From the UHGV virus genome UHGV-1844342: 11,823 bases of DNA; one strand, given 5' to 3'. Within the stretch, counting starts at the first letter, position 1. Each line of letters opens with the position of its first letter. Of the stretch, positions 17 to 11,823 are shown piece after piece. The notes below the pieces were generated by a model, which saw only the letters and a list, made by a program, of their open reading frames with translations, did no database searches and was not told the origin of the DNA. Position numbers and translations under genes: made by a program. The DNA comes from a virus.

Positions 17-490
17 GTGATAACAGGTGTCTGGAAATATAGGGGCAAATCCAGTTGGGTTTGGACTGTACCAAAAGATCACTCAAAAACTGGTGTTGAA
101 ATCGTCAGACCAGTACCTGAAATTCTACGACAGTGGGTAACGGATGTTCACGAAGAGACAAAACATACTGGTTATGTGCTGGGAAGTCTGCGAATTAGAG
201 AAAGCGTAAGCAAGATTGGGGGGAAAATCGGTAAACGTTTGGGCCATGAAAAACAATGGTCACTACACGACCTTAGAAGAACGCTATCTACTCATCTAAG
301 TGATCTCGGTGTTGAATTTTATGTAGTAGAACAACTGTTAGGCCATGCGCTACCTGGCGTGGCAGGTGTTTACAACCGGAGTAAGTTTATGGCTAAAAAA
401 CTGGATGCTCTGGAACTCTGGACTACATATCTCAATAGCATCGCAGGTGCTGATTCAAAAGTGACAATCCTCAAACAAAAGGTTGGTTAA
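17..490 (+). pseudogene. int: Tyrosine integrase (P4/CP4-57 type), C-terminal catalytic fragment only; 5'-truncated or frameshifted
   Basis: Translation has SKTG (conserved Lys region), HDLRRT (His-x-x-Arg), LLGH and GVYNRS (catalytic Tyr) motifs of tyrosine recombinases. In-frame TAA at 14-16 and stops in all three forward frames within the first 45 nt, so the N-terminal domain and box I Arg cannot be read through from upstream. Confidence 0.65.
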
Positions 491-491
491 C

Positions 492-719
492 ATGAAAAAA
501 ATGGCAATTGTTGATAAAAAGGGTCTGGAGTACATTCCTAACATTGACCGAATGATCCGTGAGAAAGAATGTCGGGAGCTAACCACTCTTGCGAACAGCA
601 CACGCTGGAAGCTGGAGAAGGAAGGAAAATTTCCTAAGCGGATCAAGATTGGTTCCACTGCTGTTGCATATCGTCTTTCAGAAGTGCAGGCATGGATTCG
701 AGGTGAGTGGGTAGTTTAA
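492..719 (+). CDS. alpA: AlpA/Vis-family prophage transcriptional regulator (winged HTH)
   Basis: 75-aa product; ...ELTTLANSTRWKLEKEGKFPKRIKIGSTAVAYRLSEVQAWI... fits the AlpA/Vis HTH pattern; sits directly after int as in Gram-negative PICIs; ATG 492 with AAGG 9 nt upstream (track start 483 is a TTG). Confidence 0.8.
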   Translation: MKKMAIVDKKGLEYIPNIDRMIREKECRELTTLANSTRWKLEKEGKFPKRIKIGSTAVAYRLSEVQAWIRGEWVV

Positions 720-1639: not shown

Positions 1640-1666
1640 GCGCCGTAGTTACTCACATCACGGCGC
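1640..1666 (-). terminator. Weak candidate hairpin (GCGCCGT ... ACGGCGC, 7-bp stem, 13-nt loop) just downstream of the minus-strand regulator gene
   Basis: Inverted repeat 1640-1646 / 1660-1666, 10 nt past the stop of the 1676-1978 gene; no clean U-tract. Confidence 0.25.
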
Positions 1667-1675
1667 TGATACTAA

Positions 1676-1978
1676 TTATTCAGATTCTTTGGCTTTACGC
1701 CGCTGGAGTTCTTCACGAGCGACGGCTACGAGTTGCCCGATTTCCTCCGCTGCCTTGATGCCGATTTGTTCGACCTTAGCTAAGGCATCCAGTGAAGACA
1801 CGAGGGGATTTTCTCCGCTTCCTTCTGCCTGGCGGCGGGCGATCTCACCGCGCATGGCGGTTACTATGAATCCGGCGTTGCTCTCGCCGTCCAGTTTTAC
1901 GGATTCCATGCCCTCCATAACATCGTGGGGAACCCTGATCGTTGTCATTTGCGATTTTGCATTTTTGTATACAGACAT
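1676..1978 (-). CDS. Putative ribbon-helix-helix (Arc/CopG-like) DNA-binding protein; candidate master repressor of the island, divergent from the early operon
   Basis: 100-aa ORF; N-terminal MTTIRVPHDVMEGMESV...NAGFIVTAMRGEIARRQ resembles a beta-strand/helix/helix RHH fold; divergently arranged relative to the operon starting at 2187 with an operator-repeat array in between. Confidence 0.45.
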   Translation of the reverse strand: MSVYKNAKSQMTTIRVPHDVMEGMESVKLDGESNAGFIVTAMRGEIARRQAEGSGENPLVSSLDALAKVEQIGIKAAEEIGQLVAVAREELQRRKAKESE

Positions 1979-1989
1979 AGTTAATCACC

Positions 1990-2110
1990 AATTTGTTATG
2001 TGTATATCACTATACACAAAAGTGATATATAAAAACACTTGCAATGTATATCACCACAATATAATGTATATCTCACATTATGGTCGCTATGTATCTCACA
2101 ATGATCGATT
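1990..2110. promoter_or_regulatory. Divergent promoter/operator region: four direct copies of TGTAT(A)TC(T)CAC(A) at 2001, 2045, 2065, 2090, one inverted copy (GTGATATA, 2022-2029), and a consensus -10 TATAAT (2060-2065) with TTGCAA (2039-2044) 15 bp upstream
   Basis: Repeats read directly from sequence; the -10 hexamer overlaps the repeats, consistent with a repressed early promoter. Confidence 0.6.
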
Positions 2111-2186
2111 CATAAAAACGACGAAACCCGGCAGTGCGCGAACACTAACCGGGCTTCTAACCAAACCGTTAAACGAGGTAACGATT

Positions 2187-2552
2187 ATGGCTGGAACACA
2201 GCATACCCAAACTCACCCTAAATTTATATACACCTTTCTGGCACTACACCACGACCGCATGGCAGATGGAGCAACTACGGTACATGTAGCCGCTGACACG
2301 CTGGTTGATGCCCGCAAGATGGTTAAGGAGATGGGCTATACTGCGGCTTTCTGGAAAGGGCGTGAAGAAAACACGCTGTTTATTCAGAAATGCGAAAACA
2401 ATTTCATCTGGCGTTTTATCGCCCTGAGTACGGCACAACCGCGCGTGATTCACATCGTGGCCACCAGCGAACAGGAAGCCCGCCAGCAATCCCCGGCTGG
2501 TTGCGTGAGGGTATTCGCCGCCCGTATTCGTCAGGAGGTATGCCGTGCTTAA
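2187..2552 (+). CDS. Hypothetical protein, first gene of the early operon
   Basis: ATG 2187 with GAGG 8 nt upstream; 121 aa; the track ORF 1638-2552 is the same frame, but its upstream part overlaps the operator region and the minus-strand regulator gene. Confidence 0.55.
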   Translation: MAGTQHTQTHPKFIYTFLALHHDRMADGATTVHVAADTLVDARKMVKEMGYTAAFWKGREENTLFIQKCENNFIWRFIALSTAQPRVIHIVATSEQEARQQSPAGCVRVFAARIRQEVCRA

Positions 2553-3160: not shown

Positions 3161-3460
3161 ATGGAAATGAAAAATTCTGGCTTTATTGCCAGCGGCCCCG
3201 CTCGGCCTGAATTTATGAACGGCGATATTTACCGCGATAAATACGGCGGCACGGTAACGATTAAAGGCGTGGCAGAACGGCGCATCACTTACCGCCGTGA
3301 GGGGTATAGCTATGACTGCGTGATGCCTGTTTATCAGTTCCGGCGTGATTTTTCCCTGGTATATGCCGCACCTCGCAGTAAGCCCACCAGCAGGGAAAAA
3401 GCGCGGGGAAACATCCAGAAAATGAAAAGCATGATTAACGCATTCAGGGGCAAAAAATGA
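3161..3460 (+). CDS. Hypothetical protein (99 aa), translationally coupled to the replication gene
   Basis: GAGGAA upstream of ATG; stop overlaps the start of the downstream gene (ATGA at 3457-3460). Confidence 0.55.
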   Translation: MEMKNSGFIASGPARPEFMNGDIYRDKYGGTVTIKGVAERRITYRREGYSYDCVMPVYQFRRDFSLVYAAPRSKPTSREKARGNIQKMKSMINAFRGKK

Positions 3461-5208
3461 AACTGGCACCGAACTTAAAAAAACAGCCACGCGACAGACT
3501 GACAGAGGTAATCATCTTTGCAGGTAGTGATGCGTGGAGCCATGCGAAAGAGTGGCAGGAATGGGCGGGTAAACATATTGCCGCCGACGATGTGCCGCCT
3601 GTCGTGCTGGCTGATGAGCAACTGAAAAACATCATCGATTACCGGATCATTGATGAAGATCGTCAGTGTGTGCGTGTTTACCGCGCAGGACATATCACAG
3701 AGCACAGCATGACGCAGATTGTTACGTTACTGGCTGTGGCTGGAGTGAAGACCGTACACGAATACGCGGGGATTACTGACACCAGCCCCGTGGATTTATC
3801 CGACCAGTTGCCGCGACTCAAAGAGGAATGCGAGCGTGGGGAAAGTCTGGTGCTTAATCTTCCGACGAAGCAAAAGGCGCAACTTTCACAGATGGCAGAC
3901 AGTGAACGTGCACAACTACTTGCCGATCGCTTTGATGGTGTGTGTGTTCATGCAGAAAGTGAAATCGTCCACGTATGGCGCGGCGGGGTATGGTGTCCGG
4001 TCAGCACAATGGAGCTGAGCCGCGAAATGGTGGCGATCTATTCAGAGCACAGGGCCACGTTCAGCAAACGTGTAATCAATAACGCCGTGGAAGCGTTAAA
4101 AGTTATTGCCGACCCCATGGGGGAGCCGTCCGGTGATTTACTACCGTTCACTAATGGTGTGCTTAACCTGAAAACGGGGGATTTTTCTCCGCACTTACCG
4201 GAGCACTGGAGCACCACGCACAATGGCATTGAGTACACGCCACCAGTAGCAGGGGAAAACATCCGCGATAATGCGCCAAATTTCCATAAATGGCTTGAAC
4301 ATGCTGCAGGAAAAGACCCGCGCAAGATGATGCGTATATGTGCCGCGTTATACATGATTATGGCGAACCGCTACGACTGGCAGATGTTCATTGAGGCCAC
4401 CGGAGACGGGGGAAGCGGTAAGAGTACATTTACCCATATTGCCACCCTGCTTGCTGGCAAACAGAACACCGTAAGCGCAGAGATGACATCACTCGATGAT
4501 GCAGGAGGGCGCGCGCAGGTTGTCGGGAGTCGTCTTATCGTCCTTGCCGATCAGCTGAAATATACGGGGGAAGGCACGGGCATCAAGAAAATCACGGGAG
4601 GCGATCCCGTTGAAATTAACCCGAAATATGAGAAGCGATTCACGACGATAATAAGGGCGGTGGTACTGGCAACCAATAACGACCCGATGATCTTTACCGA
4701 ACGGGCCGGAGGTGTGTCACGCCGTCGGGTGATTTTCCGGTTCGACAACATTGTAAGGGAGGACGAAAAAGACAAGGAATTACCGGAAAAGATAGCGGCA
4801 GAAATCCCCGTAATTATCCGCCGCTTGCTGGCTAATTTTGCTGACCCTGAAAAGGCACGGGCTTTATTACTGGAACAGCGTGACGGTGATGAAGCTCTGG
4901 CAATAAAGCAGCAAACGGATCCGGTTGTTGAGCTTTGCGCGGCGCTGGAGTTTCTGGAGGAAGCTCGTGGGCTAATGATGGGCGGTGGTGGTGACACCGT
5001 GAAGTACACGACCAGAAACAGCCTTTACCGTGTCTATATGGCCTTCATGGCATATACAGGAAAGGGGAAATGTTTGAGCGTGAATGAGTTCGGAAAGGCT
5101 ATGAGGTCAGCGGCGAAAGTTTACGGATATGAATATATTACGCGAAAAGTTAAGGGAGTCACGCAGACCAACGCAACGACTACTGATGATTGCGATGCGT
5201 TTTTATAA
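3457..5208 (+). CDS. Replication protein: SF3 helicase with primase-associated N-terminal region (P4 alpha C-terminal / D5-like family; PICI pri-rep analogue)
   Basis: 583 aa; Walker A EATGDGGSGKST (about nt 4395-4430), Walker B-like RLIVLADQ (about 4531-4554), motif C-like VLATNND; iteron origin immediately downstream. Confidence 0.85.
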   Translation: MKLAPNLKKQPRDRLTEVIIFAGSDAWSHAKEWQEWAGKHIAADDVPPVVLADEQLKNIIDYRIIDEDRQCVRVYRAGHITEHSMTQIVTLLAVAGVKTVHEYAGITDTSPVDLSDQLPRLKEECERGESLVLNLPTKQKAQLSQMADSERAQLLADRFDGVCVHAESEIVHVWRGGVWCPVSTMELSREMVAIYSEHRATFSKRVINNAVEALKVIADPMGEPSGDLLPFTNGVLNLKTGDFSPHLPEHWSTTHNGIEYTPPVAGENIRDNAPNFHKWLEHAAGKDPRKMMRICAALYMIMANRYDWQMFIEATGDGGSGKSTFTHIATLLAGKQNTVSAEMTSLDDAGGRAQVVGSRLIVLADQLKYTGEGTGIKKITGGDPVEINPKYEKRFTTIIRAVVLATNNDPMIFTERAGGVSRRRVIFRFDNIVREDEKDKELPEKIAAEIPVIIRRLLANFADPEKARALLLEQRDGDEALAIKQQTDPVVELCAALEFLEEARGLMMGGGGDTVKYTTRNSLYRVYMAFMAYTGKGKCLSVNEFGKAMRSAAKVYGYEYITRKVKGVTQTNATTTDDCDAFL

Positions 5209-5220
5209 AAAATGGCAATG

Positions 5221-5455
5221 GTTATCTACCTTGTCTACCTGACTGAAATAAAATACTTTTATTTCAATGTATTAATGCAGGTAGATAACTATTTTTCACT
5301 GTCTACCTGTTATCTACCTTATCTACCCATTTTTGTAGACAGGTAAGGAGACGGGTAGAGATGAGGTAGACAGCTATTTGGGGCTGTCTACCTCCCTGAA
5401 ACCCGCGCCATTACTGGCCTGATAACTAATCAGGTAGACAAGGTAGACAAGGTGG
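5221..5455. repeat. Iteron-type replication origin: about 12 copies of GGTAGAC(A)/GTCTACC (with GGTAGATA variants) in both orientations flanking an AT-rich spacer (5241-5278)
   Basis: Copies at about 5223, 5233, 5280, 5301, 5312, 5321, 5335, 5353, 5365, 5385, 5433, 5442; tandem pair GGTAGACAAGGTAGACAAGG at 5433-5451; directly 3' of the helicase gene as in PICI/P4 ori. Confidence 0.8.
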
Positions 5456-9983: not shown

Positions 9984-10760
9984 GTGAATCCGCAGATGAC
10001 CCTGCGTCGCCTGCCGGATGAAGATCCGCAGAATCTGGCGGACCCGGCTTACCGCCGCCGTCGCATCATTATGCAGAACATGCGTGACGAAGAGCTGGCC
10101 ATTGCCCAGGTCGAAGAGATGCAGGCAGTTTCTGCCGTGCTTAAGGGCAAATACACCATGACCGGTGAAGCTTTCGATCCGGTTGAGGTGGATATGGGCC
10201 GCAGTGCGGCCAACAACATCACGCAGTCCGGCGGCACGGAGTGGAGCAAGCGTGACAAGTCCACGTATGACCCGACCGACGATATCGAAGCCTACGCGCT
10301 GAACGCCAGCGGAGTGGTGAATATCATCGTGTTTGATCCGAAAGGCTGGGCGCTGTTCCGTTCCTTCAAAGCCGTCAAGGAGAAGCTGGATACTCGTCGC
10401 GGCTCTCATTCCGAGCTGGAGACAGCGGTGAAAGACCTGGGCAAAGCGGTGTCCTACAAGGGGATGTATGGCGATGTGGCCATCGTCGTGTATTCCGGAC
10501 AGTACGTGGAAAACGGCGTCAAAAAGAACTTCCTGCCGGACAACACGATGGTGCTGGGGAACACTCAGGCACGCGGTCTGCGCACCTATGGCTGCATTCA
10601 GGATGCGGACGCACAGCGCGAAGGCATTAACGCCTCTGCCCGTTACCCGAAAAACTGGGTGACCACCGGCGATCCGGCGCGTGAGTTCACCATGATTCAG
10701 TCAGCACCGCTGATGCTGCTGGCTGATCCTGATGAGTTCGTGTCTGTACAACTGGCGTAA
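9984..10760 (+). pseudogene. E: Major capsid protein gpE, 5'-truncated fragment (C-terminal about 258 codons), near-identical to lambda E
   Basis: Translation NPQMTLRRLPDEDPQNLADPAYRRRRIIMQNMRDEELAIAQ...EFVSVQLA matches lambda gpE from about residue 85 to the end as recalled; in-frame TAG at 9969-9971 and non-lambda AT-rich sequence upstream; the track start is a GTG that is internal in lambda. Confidence 0.85.
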
Positions 10761-10801
10761 TCATGGCCCTTCGGGGCCATTTTCTCTCTGTGGAGGAGTT
10801 C

Positions 10802-11200
10802 ATGACGAAAGATGAACTGATTGCCCGTCTTCAGGAGCTGGGTGAGCAACTGAACCGCGATGTCAGTTTGACGGGAACGAAAGAAGAACTGGCGCTTCGT
10901 GTGGCAGAGCTGGAAGAAGAGCTTGATGACACGGATGAAACTGCCGGTCAGGACACCCCTCTCAGCCGGGAAAATGTGCTGACCGGGCATGAAAATGAGG
11001 TGGTATCAGCGCAGCCGGATACCGTGATTCAGGATACGGCTGAACTGGTCACGGTTGTGGCACTGGTGACGCTGCATACTGATGCACTTCACGCCACGCG
11101 GGATGAACCTGTGGCATTTGTGCTGCCGGGAACGGCGTTCCGTGTCTCTGCCGGTGTGGCAGCTGAAATGACAGAGCGCGGCCTGGCCAGAATGCAATAA
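10802..11200 (+). CDS. FI: DNA-packaging protein FI, lambda-like
   Basis: MTKDELIARL...LTGTKEELALRVAELEEELDDTDETAGQDTPLSRENVLTGHENEV...AEMTERGLARMQ matches lambda gpFI as recalled; GGAGGAG RBS before ATG 10802 (the track start 10763 is an upstream extension). Confidence 0.9.
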   Translation: MTKDELIARLQELGEQLNRDVSLTGTKEELALRVAELEEELDDTDETAGQDTPLSRENVLTGHENEVVSAQPDTVIQDTAELVTVVALVTLHTDALHATRDEPVAFVLPGTAFRVSAGVAAEMTERGLARMQ

Positions 11201-11211
11201 CGGGAGGCGCT

Positions 11212-11823
11212 GTGGCTGATTTCGATAACCTGTTCGATGCTGCCATTGCCCGCGCCGATGAAACGATACGCGGGTACATGGGAACGTCAGCCACCATGAC
11301 ATCCGGTGAGCAGTCCGGTGCTGTGATACGTGGTGTTTTTGATGACCCTGAAAATATCAGCTATGCCGGACAGGGCGTGCGCGTTGAAGGCTCCAGCCCG
11401 TCCCTGTTTGTCCGGACTGATGATGTGCGGCAGCTGCGGCGCGGCGACACGCTGACTTCCATTGCCCGGCAATTCGGCACGACGGTCACGAGCATTGTCG
11501 CAATCAATGATCTAAAAAATGAATCTGATCGCAATGAGCAGGACGGCATCAGGTATATGCTTATGGGCTTCTTTCAAGGGCCTCGCAATTTGTACCAACA
11601 CAATCACATTGGCTCCGGTGTAAGCAATTCTATTTCCGTAATCATTGAAGCATCTTTCTTCCTCCATCTACTTGATGGGCACAGCATTACTCAAAACGGA
11701 CGCTGGATTCCGGCCAAAGCAGATTATCACGAGATTTATCAAAAGATGCCCAAGCATATTGATCGTTGGAAGCTTGTACGCCTACTAAAGAAGCGTGATC
11801 GTAGGTTGAAGAAAGATCAATGA
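11212..11823 (+). CDS. FII: FII-like head-tail joining protein: first about 82 codons lambda FII-like, then an unrelated lower-GC C-terminal extension (chimeric or disrupted gene)
   Basis: GTG start with GGGAGG RBS; MADFDNLFDAAIARADETIRGYMGTSAT...VRQLRRGDTLT matches lambda gpFII as recalled, then diverges at about nt 11458 (lambda continues IGEENFWV...); the frame nevertheless stays open for about 120 more codons to the TGA at the window end. Confidence 0.6.
   Translation: MADFDNLFDAAIARADETIRGYMGTSATMTSGEQSGAVIRGVFDDPENISYAGQGVRVEGSSPSLFVRTDDVRQLRRGDTLTSIARQFGTTVTSIVAINDLKNESDRNEQDGIRYMLMGFFQGPRNLYQHNHIGSGVSNSISVIIEASFFLHLLDGHSITQNGRWIPAKADYHEIYQKMPKHIDRWKLVRLLKKRDRRLKKDQ

Follow-up and report, generated by a model that had tools for sequence, protein, structure and literature searches.

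Positions 1990–2110 of UHGV-1844342, an 11,823-bp stretch of viral DNA that we refer to as the window, contain a set of short repeats between a reverse-strand gene and the first gene of an early operon. The window corresponds to an Escherichia coli chromosomal satellite, a phage-inducible chromosomal island (PICI) of the Gram-negative kind, located inside the capsid gene of a lambdoid prophage. From the comparison of related islands, we consider it likely that the repeats form the operator array of the 100-residue protein encoded by the reverse-strand gene (1676–1978, minus strand), a YlcI/YnfO-family protein that would act as a ribbon–helix–helix (RHH) repressor similar to Arc and Mnt. The control region is probably two-layered, combining the repressor operators with a SymR-like antisense RNA that is predicted over the start of the first early gene. 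An earlier sequence-only reading had taken the repeats as operators for both the repressor gene and the early operon. This holds up in the comparison across loci and in the overlap of the sites with both promoters, while the placement of the early promoter and of one palindrome arm had to be corrected; the antisense RNA did not appear in that reading.

The array consists of four direct copies and one inverted copy of the word, as had been described from the sequence. The sites are O1 (GTGTATATCAC, 2000–2010, plus strand), the inverted copy O1′ (TTATATATCAC, 2022–2032, minus strand), O2 (ATGTATATCAC, 2044–2054, plus strand), O3 (ATGTATATCTCAC, 2064–2076, plus strand) and O4 (ATGTATCTCAC, 2089–2099, plus strand). 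O1 and O1′ are 22 bp apart from centre to centre, and the spacings along the whole array are ~22, 22, 21 and 24 bp, roughly two helical turns. The core TAT(A/C)TCAC occurs five times in the 11,823 bp (0.60 expected), and all five copies fall within the 97 bp of 2003–2099; none of 200 shuffles of the whole window reached five copies. The nested inverted repeats pointed out earlier are also present, pairing 1996–2006 with 2011–2021 at 91% and 2003–2011 with 2021–2029 at 100%.

The stretch 1979–2113 has a GC content of 29%, and the repeats could in principle be a chance product of AT-rich, low-complexity promoter DNA. A looser search for the 11-mer with two mismatches found seven copies against 3.4 expected, which is not significant alone, and single-locus counts with one mismatch are barely above, or close to, the maxima of shuffled sequences, so that the case is carried by the exact cores and by the evidence from other loci. 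On these, chance is rejected computationally. The exact cores number 5 against 0.6 expected. When no motif was specified in advance, the best 8-mer with one two-fold position in 1979–2113 was likewise found five times, a count reached in only 2 of 1000 dinucleotide-preserving shuffles of this stretch. Furthermore, 40 loci carry repeats at the same positions, with words that agree within a locus and differ between types and with sites that are kept while the spacers diverge. A chance origin is extremely improbable.

The comparison set comprises 40 distinct loci from about 15 genera, including Escherichia, Yersinia, Enterobacter, Xenorhabdus, Photorhabdus, Serratia, Klebsiella, Pectobacterium and others. 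The sequence-only reading had made its proposal depend on the repeats being found in homologous islands, and they are present across the 40 loci in a type-specific form. Counted from the start codon of the repressor gene, the sites keep fixed positions at ~26, 48, 71, 93 and 115 bp. Read from that codon, the common layout begins with site 1 and a constant xTATAC(A/G)C, which is a TATAnT −10 element on the other strand, followed by an A-rich tract with or without the inverted site. TTGnnn then lies at +63 to +65, site 2 opens a 17-nt spacer that ends at TAnnnT, and site 3, a conserved leader, and the ribosome-binding site and start of the Icd-like gene complete the arrangement. As a separate observation, a palindrome CCTTGA-N5-6-TCAAGG stands just after site 3 in a subset of loci (L002–L007, L012–L016, L031, L032, L040 and L047) and is not found in the window; from its position where the early transcript begins, it might form a 5′ stem-loop or serve another factor as a binding site.

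Promoters were located by this conservation across loci instead of by a consensus scan. For the rightward early promoter, the −35 element is TTGCAA (2039–2044, plus strand) and the predicted −10 element is TAATGT (2062–2067, plus strand), with a spacer of 17 nt. In nearly all 40 loci, TTGnnn and the start codon of the repressor gene are 63–65 nt apart, the exceptions being three outliers with distances between 52 and 67 and locus L004, which has TTAACG; TAnnnT occupies the −10 register in about 35 of the 40. The earlier reading had the repeats overlapping a consensus TATAAT. This hexamer does exist, at 2060–2065, but it leaves a spacer of 15 nt, and its register is lost in the Yersinia and Enterobacter relatives, where that of TAATGT is kept. 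For the leftward repressor promoter, the predicted −10 element is TATAGT (2009–2014, minus strand), and TATAnT is kept at this place in all specificity types. In the palindrome GTGTATA-TCAC-TATACAC listed before, the right arm TATACAC is constant in all specificity types and reads as the −10 element TATAGT of the repressor promoter, not as a type-specific half-site.

The repeated sites overlap core elements of both promoters. O1 covers the last bases of the leftward −10 element and the predicted start of the repressor transcript, and together with O1′ it flanks that element. O2 lies at the beginning of the spacer between the −35 and −10 elements of the early promoter, O3 lies over the early −10 element and predicted start site, and O4 corresponds to about +15 to +25 of the early transcript. 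The Shine-Dalgarno sequence of the repressor gene, GGTGAT (1984–1989, minus strand), is not an operator copy; the ATCAC at 1984–1988 is part of it, and other loci have GGAG at the same place. At the other end of the gene, a GC-rich hairpin (GCGCCGT...ACGGCGC, 1640–1666, minus strand) directly follows the stop codon, as does the same hairpin after the homologue in EcCICFT073. It is possibly the 3′ end of the repressor transcript, and its role as a terminator is uncertain because it has no U-run.

The word itself changes with the predicted β-strand of the RHH protein. The β-strand MTTIRV is found with the word TGTATATCAC, MTTVRI (in short forms of the protein) with GTGTATTTCAC, LTTVRV or LFTVRV with GTGTGTTTCA, QLNARF with GCGATTCA or GGTATTCA, QINARF with G(G/A)GATTCA, SLTARI with GTGTAAGAC, and ALKARV, the strand of the EcCICFT073 protein, with TGGGCCACACC. 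The core of site 2 recurs 3.1× in its own region and 2.6× in loci with the same β-strand, as opposed to 0.86× in loci with a different one. All copies of the word inside one locus change together. Linkage alone is insufficient to account for this concerted change, which argues for function. In addition, E. coli HNSQ2209, Yersinia enterocolitica and Enterobacter ludwigii keep the sites of the window type unchanged, in the arrangement of four direct copies and one inverted copy, while the bases between the sites diverge.

Another protein might bind these sites, be it the island AlpA, the Icd-like product of the first early gene or a regulator of the helper phage. AlpA is the only regulator of Gram-negative PICIs to have been demonstrated experimentally (PMC6092414, PMC11773190), and the Icd-like protein matches phrog_1743 and phrog_6196, both labelled ‘transcriptional repressor’. 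However, the word follows the β-strand type of the RHH protein and tracks neither AlpA, nor the first early gene, nor the replication protein, which supports the assignment of the sites to the RHH protein. AlpA is 29–36% identical in loci with the same word, compared with 47–50% in loci with different words; for the first early gene, the identities are 29–39% in same-word loci and 58% in the comparison with a different-word locus. HNSQ2209 has an operator region 95% identical to that of the window, but a RepA-type helicase replaces the D5_N primase there. Conversely, L034 combines the leader and early-gene start of the window with another RHH type and another word. Operators and the N-terminus of the RHH protein appear to travel together as a cassette. 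Control of the sites by one of these other proteins is unlikely.

Several observations bear on this cassette. The window protein and P0027, its counterpart in locus L042 with a β-strand of the LTTVRV type, are 90% identical, with 7–9 differences in residues 1–22 (depending on how an N-terminal indel is counted) and three in the remaining ~78 residues, and their operator words differ. As the N-terminal differences accompany changed operators, the reading head of the protein and its operators are apparently exchanged as a unit, suggesting recombination breakpoints inside the repressor gene. The two halves of the intergenic region also differ in how often they occur among E. coli genomes, with about 47 carrying the operator half and about 860 the leader half. 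The inverted site O1′, allowing at most one mismatch, is present in 15 of 20 loci that encode long forms of the protein (98–108 residues) and in one of 21 that encode short forms (59–63 residues). This association fits a role of the C-terminal helix in joining dimers.

The 100-residue protein matches the NCBIfam model NF041551 (YlcI_YnfO_N) over residues 8–49 with 70.5 bits, compared with a cut-off of 30, and bears the same name in RefSeq. The family has 249 detectable relatives across Enterobacterales, some of which are labelled ‘Arc-like DNA binding domain’ in UniRef. An AlphaFold2 model of the monomer (31 homologues, pLDDT 80) has an extended N-terminus, helices at residues 18–27 and 34–54, and a long helix at 58–99. 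The N-terminal part (approximately residues 8–54) is thus a β-strand followed by two helices within about 45 residues, the order expected of an RHH domain, and the model makes this fold likely. The segment TTIRVPHDV aligns in register with FNLRWPREV of Arc and FNFRMPMEV of Mnt, whose sequences were checked against the PDB, and R-x-P-x-(D/E)-V is common to all three. Homology to Arc or Mnt specifically is unproven, and a profile search of the PDB with the protein gave no usable match. The helper prophage has a YlcI of its own, with 64 residues (L001 2721–2915), encoded beside cos and nu1 and ~16% identical to the satellite protein. The region upstream of the helper ylcI (L001 2916–3303) contains cos and no repeat array, and cross-talk between the helper and satellite proteins is for this reason unsupported.

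The structures closest to the protein are those of the RHH antitoxins Rv0298, TacA1, MazE7 and ParD2. This raises the possibility that it is an autoregulating antitoxin of a toxin–antitoxin or addiction module, whose repeats serve its own control only; the relationship of the adjoining antisense RNA to the type I antitoxin SymR points the same way. Against such a module, it is the replication-operon promoter, and not that of the RHH gene, that three of the five sites cover. In addition, no conserved toxin partner follows the RHH gene across the loci: in the window it is followed by the hairpin and a 350-nt gap, in EcCICFT073 by a gene for a 57-residue basic protein, and in the other loci by nothing comparable. 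We regard an antitoxin with a purely autoregulatory array as quite unlikely.

The second layer of control would be an antisense RNA of ~80 nt (2113–2192, minus strand), which we predict from Rfam, covariation and a covariance model of our own. A scan of the window with Rfam returned a single match, symR (RF01809), at 2120–2192 on the minus strand. It spans the full model with 35.3 bits (E 0.0011). As the gathering score is 61, the RNA is not a member of RF01809 by Rfam’s own criterion. The symR model gives 36–39 bits in three other loci, also sub-threshold, and 95.3 bits for native symR. No match to the P4-type CI, C4 or isrK immunity RNAs was found in the window. As in symR/symE, the RNA is predicted to start within the gene that it opposes, here 3 nt into the coding sequence of the first early gene. 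It would cover both the Shine-Dalgarno sequence GAGG (2175–2178, plus strand) and the start codon (2187–2189, plus strand) of this gene.

Two hairpins are predicted, the first with an anti-Shine-Dalgarno loop (2159–2192, minus strand) and the second GC-rich with a U-rich, terminator-like tail (2123–2157, minus strand). RNAalifold applied to 32 sequences recovers both, with compensatory changes in 11 of 15 pairs. The paired cells of the alignment hold 62 G-U and two A-C combinations, so that 97% are paired when read as a minus-strand RNA, compared with 85% as a plus-strand RNA. The same asymmetry is seen in the folding of the window sequence, which yields −33.8 kcal/mol (z −5.4) for the minus strand and −19.3 kcal/mol (z −1.7) for the plus strand. 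The predicted −10 element of the antisense promoter, TATGCT (2200–2205, minus strand), lies within the first early gene; its distance from the predicted 5′ end equals that of TAGAAT in native symR, and its TAnnnT persists in nearly all loci despite changes in the codons. A covariance model built from the satellites detects EcCICFT073, which was outside the training set, with 54 bits, and native symR with 30.7 bits (E 7e-6). Taken together, these data make a SymR-like antisense RNA over the start of the first early gene likely. The native symR/symE locus shows nucleotide similarity to the satellites through the leader and the first codons, suggesting that the chromosomal symR/symE leader is related to this module of mobile elements.

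Three further observations concern this region. The sequence GTGTATATAAA at 2223–2233 (minus strand) matches the first eight bases of the operator word and overlaps the candidate −35 element (TATAAA) of the antisense promoter; it is not kept in the Yersinia relative and is probably a chance match. The antisense covariance model has a weak second match (23.6 bits) on the operator region at 2001–2090 (minus strand), with CCAUAA, UUGUGGU and AGUGUU...CACU in common. This match is limited to the operator type of the window and may be due to chance or be a remnant of a leader duplication. Finally, the TGTATAT words and the kinship with symE, which natively has a LexA box, led us to consider an SOS box. 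No CTG-N10-CAG is present, the best approximation being ATGT-N8-ACAA, and the words vary between types; an SOS box is therefore rejected.

Four direct repeats with a spacing of 22–23 bp in DNA of 29% GC also resemble plasmid iterons, and the array might be read as a replication origin. An origin array typical of PICIs is found instead at 5221–5449, directly after the primase gene, where many copies of GGTAGACA and TGTCTACC in both orientations surround an AT-rich core. This array is probably the replication origin of the island; the ori of EcCICFT073 was mapped at the equivalent place, after the primase (PMC6092414). Furthermore, the operator is found in HNSQ2209 with a different replication protein, and the sites at 1990–2110 are in exact register with the −35 and −10 elements. 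The separate array and the pairing with another replication protein speak against replication iterons at 1990–2110, and such a function is hardly credible.

From these data we propose that dimers of the RHH protein would recognise the 11-bp word (A/G)TGTAT(A/C)TCAC through the N-terminal arm and β-strand, approximately residues 1–22. Five words placed ~22 bp apart would present themselves on one face of the helix. Occupancy of O2, O3 and O4 would repress, rather than activate, the rightward promoter and keep the operon from the Icd-like gene to the primase silent. Because O1 and O1′ bracket the leftward −10 element TATAGT, the repressor would also limit its own synthesis. The long C-terminal helix, which exists only in the forms of ~100 residues, probably joins dimers bound at neighbouring sites. 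In the second layer, the ~80-nt SymR-related RNA, transcribed from a promoter inside the first early gene, would pair with the Shine-Dalgarno sequence and start codon of that gene and silence leaky transcripts.

A number of points weigh against the assignment of the repeats to a YlcI/YnfO repressor. The links to characterised RHH proteins are weak, with hhalign E values of 0.007 for Arc and 0.12 for Mnt, and matches to the RHH clan of Pfam are sub-threshold (PSK_trans_fac, 16 bits for a cut-off of 28, in 22 of 31 homologues). A Foldseek comparison with the PDB gave E values above 5 and was uninformative. The 22-bp spacing exceeds the ~11 bp of Arc or Mnt tetramers. The leftward promoter has no recognisable −35 element, and a consensus scan of 1400–2700, with a spacer of 16–18 nt and at its threshold, detected no promoter. 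Since repressor gene and operators are adjacent, part of their co-variation reflects shared descent. Our literature searches turned up neither binding nor expression data on a YlcI/YnfO protein. Lastly, AlpA is an activator in EcCICFT073: transfer depends on it, and cloned alpA is sufficient to set off excision and replication (PMC6092414), so that the repressor cannot be an absolute block. Simple read-through driven by AlpA is doubtful as an override in the present island, where a terminator-like hairpin with a 14-bp stem (745–780) directly follows alpA.

The same sufficiency and requirement of AlpA in the closely related EcCICFT073, which has the same module, leaves the earlier description of the array as a ‘master switch’ unproven, and we found nothing in support of a helper-encoded antirepressor acting on it. 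In this embedded island, we think that the most likely override of repression would be late transcription of the helper, antiterminated by Q and entering through int and alpA. Transcription modified by Q could pass the hairpin at 745–780, cross the repressor gene in antisense and traverse the operators into the early operon. Such late read-through would express the early operon and lower repressor synthesis simultaneously. Between alpA and the RHH gene, related islands often have AntA, Bro-N or ORF6N genes, none of which is found in the window; their products could be antagonists encoded by the islands themselves.

The genes around the control region were assigned with Pfam, NCBIfam and RefSeq annotation. 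The C-terminus of an integrase is encoded at 17–490 and AlpA at 483–719 (both plus strand). Bordered by the hairpin at 745–780, a low-GC membrane open reading frame (ORF) follows at 789–1325 on the minus strand. This reverse-strand ORF of 178 residues, in the segment 745–1325, has a GC content of 30–32%, predicted membrane segments and no family match, and looks like an accessory ‘moron’ cassette. To the right of the array, the first early gene (2187–2552, plus strand) encodes an Icd-like protein of 121 residues, with the Icd-like domain at residues 73–116 (NCBIfam NF033153, 72.4 bits). It heads the operon that extends through small ORFs to DUF4222 (3161–3460, plus strand) and the D5_N primase (3457–5208, plus strand). 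Genes for SSB, capsid, decoration and TerS-like proteins lie downstream of the primase, on the plus strand.

An identical copy of the island is present in strain FDAARGOS_1296, within the major capsid gene of a lambdoid prophage and in the orientation of the late genes. The order int, alpA, primase and ori, the size of ~10–11 kb, and the location in a helper late gene in the same orientation are those of the helper-embedded PICIs already described for 11capE (PMC10111431). In that description, the non-hypothetical genes are treated as unidirectional, and two reverse-strand genes are not discussed (PMC10111431). In FDAARGOS_1296, an IS66 element splits the island primase. The island interrupts the major capsid gene of the prophage and brings capsid and decoration homologues of its own (~9984–11823; L001 9248–9493 and 23085–23873).

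In Gram-positive PICIs, a master repressor silences the island and is inactivated by helper proteins, whereas in Gram-negative PICIs the global repressor has been called ‘unclear’ and only the activator AlpA is known (PMC6092414). Later work retains AlpA as the master regulator (PMC11773190), and a 2026 survey lists YlcI/YnfO merely as an accessory ‘prophage-associated protein’ (PMC13612085). Searches of the full-text literature, subscription papers excepted, yielded no account of what YlcI/YnfO does and none of an RHH repressor in PICIs. As judged from the sequences compared here, the head of the replication operon carries a divergent putative RHH gene, a type-specific array of candidate operators and a conserved predicted antisense RNA. 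The module is present in this island, in EcCICFT073 and in related satellites of ~16% of complete E. coli genomes.

These findings provide a candidate repressor for Gram-negative PICIs that is directly testable in the established model strain EcCICFT073. Should it prove functional, the module would provide the satellites with a repressor layer and with immunity types, explain the silence of their early genes in the lysogen and offer orthogonal pairs of repressor and operator. We put forward tentatively, as possible rather than probable, that the RHH protein, the phased operators and the SymR-like RNA together supply the immunity and maintenance system that has been missing from the picture of Gram-negative PICIs, EcCICFT073 included. 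In this proposal, the cassette of arm, β-strand and operator would set the immunity type, and AlpA or late transcription of the helper would override the repressor.

Among known elements, 11capE and EcCICFT073 share with the window the gene order int, alpA, reverse genes, early genes, DUF4222, primase, ori, SSB, capsid and decoration. The papers on these two islands make no mention of a reverse-strand RHH gene or of the repeats. EcCICFT073, locus L047 in our set (NC_004431.1 1380242–1381052), carries the same RHH, operator, antisense and Icd-like module. Here, alpA is followed by a small reverse ORF, a reverse-strand YlcI/YnfO gene of 59 residues (C_RS30120, 1380473–1380652), the repeats (TGGGCCACACC twice), the leader and the Icd-like gene. 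It differs from the window in the word and in the length of the RHH protein, whose gene bears only a new RefSeq locus tag.

The predicted antisense RNA is reminiscent of SymR/SymE of E. coli K-12 (RF01809). The geometry is the same, with a 5′ end 3 nt inside the coding sequence, two hairpins and a length of ~77–80 nt, and the models match reciprocally (Rfam symR with 35–39 bits in four satellite loci, the satellite model with 30.7 bits on symR). The targets differ, being SymE in one case and the Icd-like gene in the other, and the LexA box upstream of symE has its place taken in the satellites by RHH-type repeats. For the array, Omega of pSM19035 and RHH dimers of the CopG/ParG type offer a parallel, reading short words in direct or inverted repeat whose number and orientation vary between promoters. 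The heptads of Omega are contiguous, in 7-bp steps, whereas here 22 bp separate one word from the next and promoter elements alternate with the words.

In position, the closest known system is Stl/Rpr of the Gram-positive PICIs (SaPIs). As with the putative repressor here, the repressor gene diverges from the excision and replication operon of the satellite, with the control region between them (PMC6092414). The Stl/Rpr proteins are larger, of the helix-turn-helix type, unrelated in sequence and inactivated by helper proteins, whereas in the present island AlpA is encoded upstream as the known activator. In logic, the closest known system is the immI region of P22 (Mnt, Arc, Pant/Pmnt and sar), where a small RHH repressor likewise diverges from the operon it controls, with operators over both promoters. 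In Mnt, the RHH fold is extended by a C-terminal helical domain for oligomerisation, resembling the predicted form of the 100-residue protein, and a small antisense RNA lies over a ribosome-binding site in the controlled operon, sar in P22 and the SymR-like RNA predicted here. P22 has one operator of 17–21 bp in place of five sites at ~22 bp, and immI controls an antirepressor, whereas the operon of the island starts with the Icd-like gene and extends to the primase. Given that there is no significant homology to Mnt or Arc and that the first controlled gene is Icd-like, the resemblance to P22 immI would be one of regulatory logic and not of family membership.

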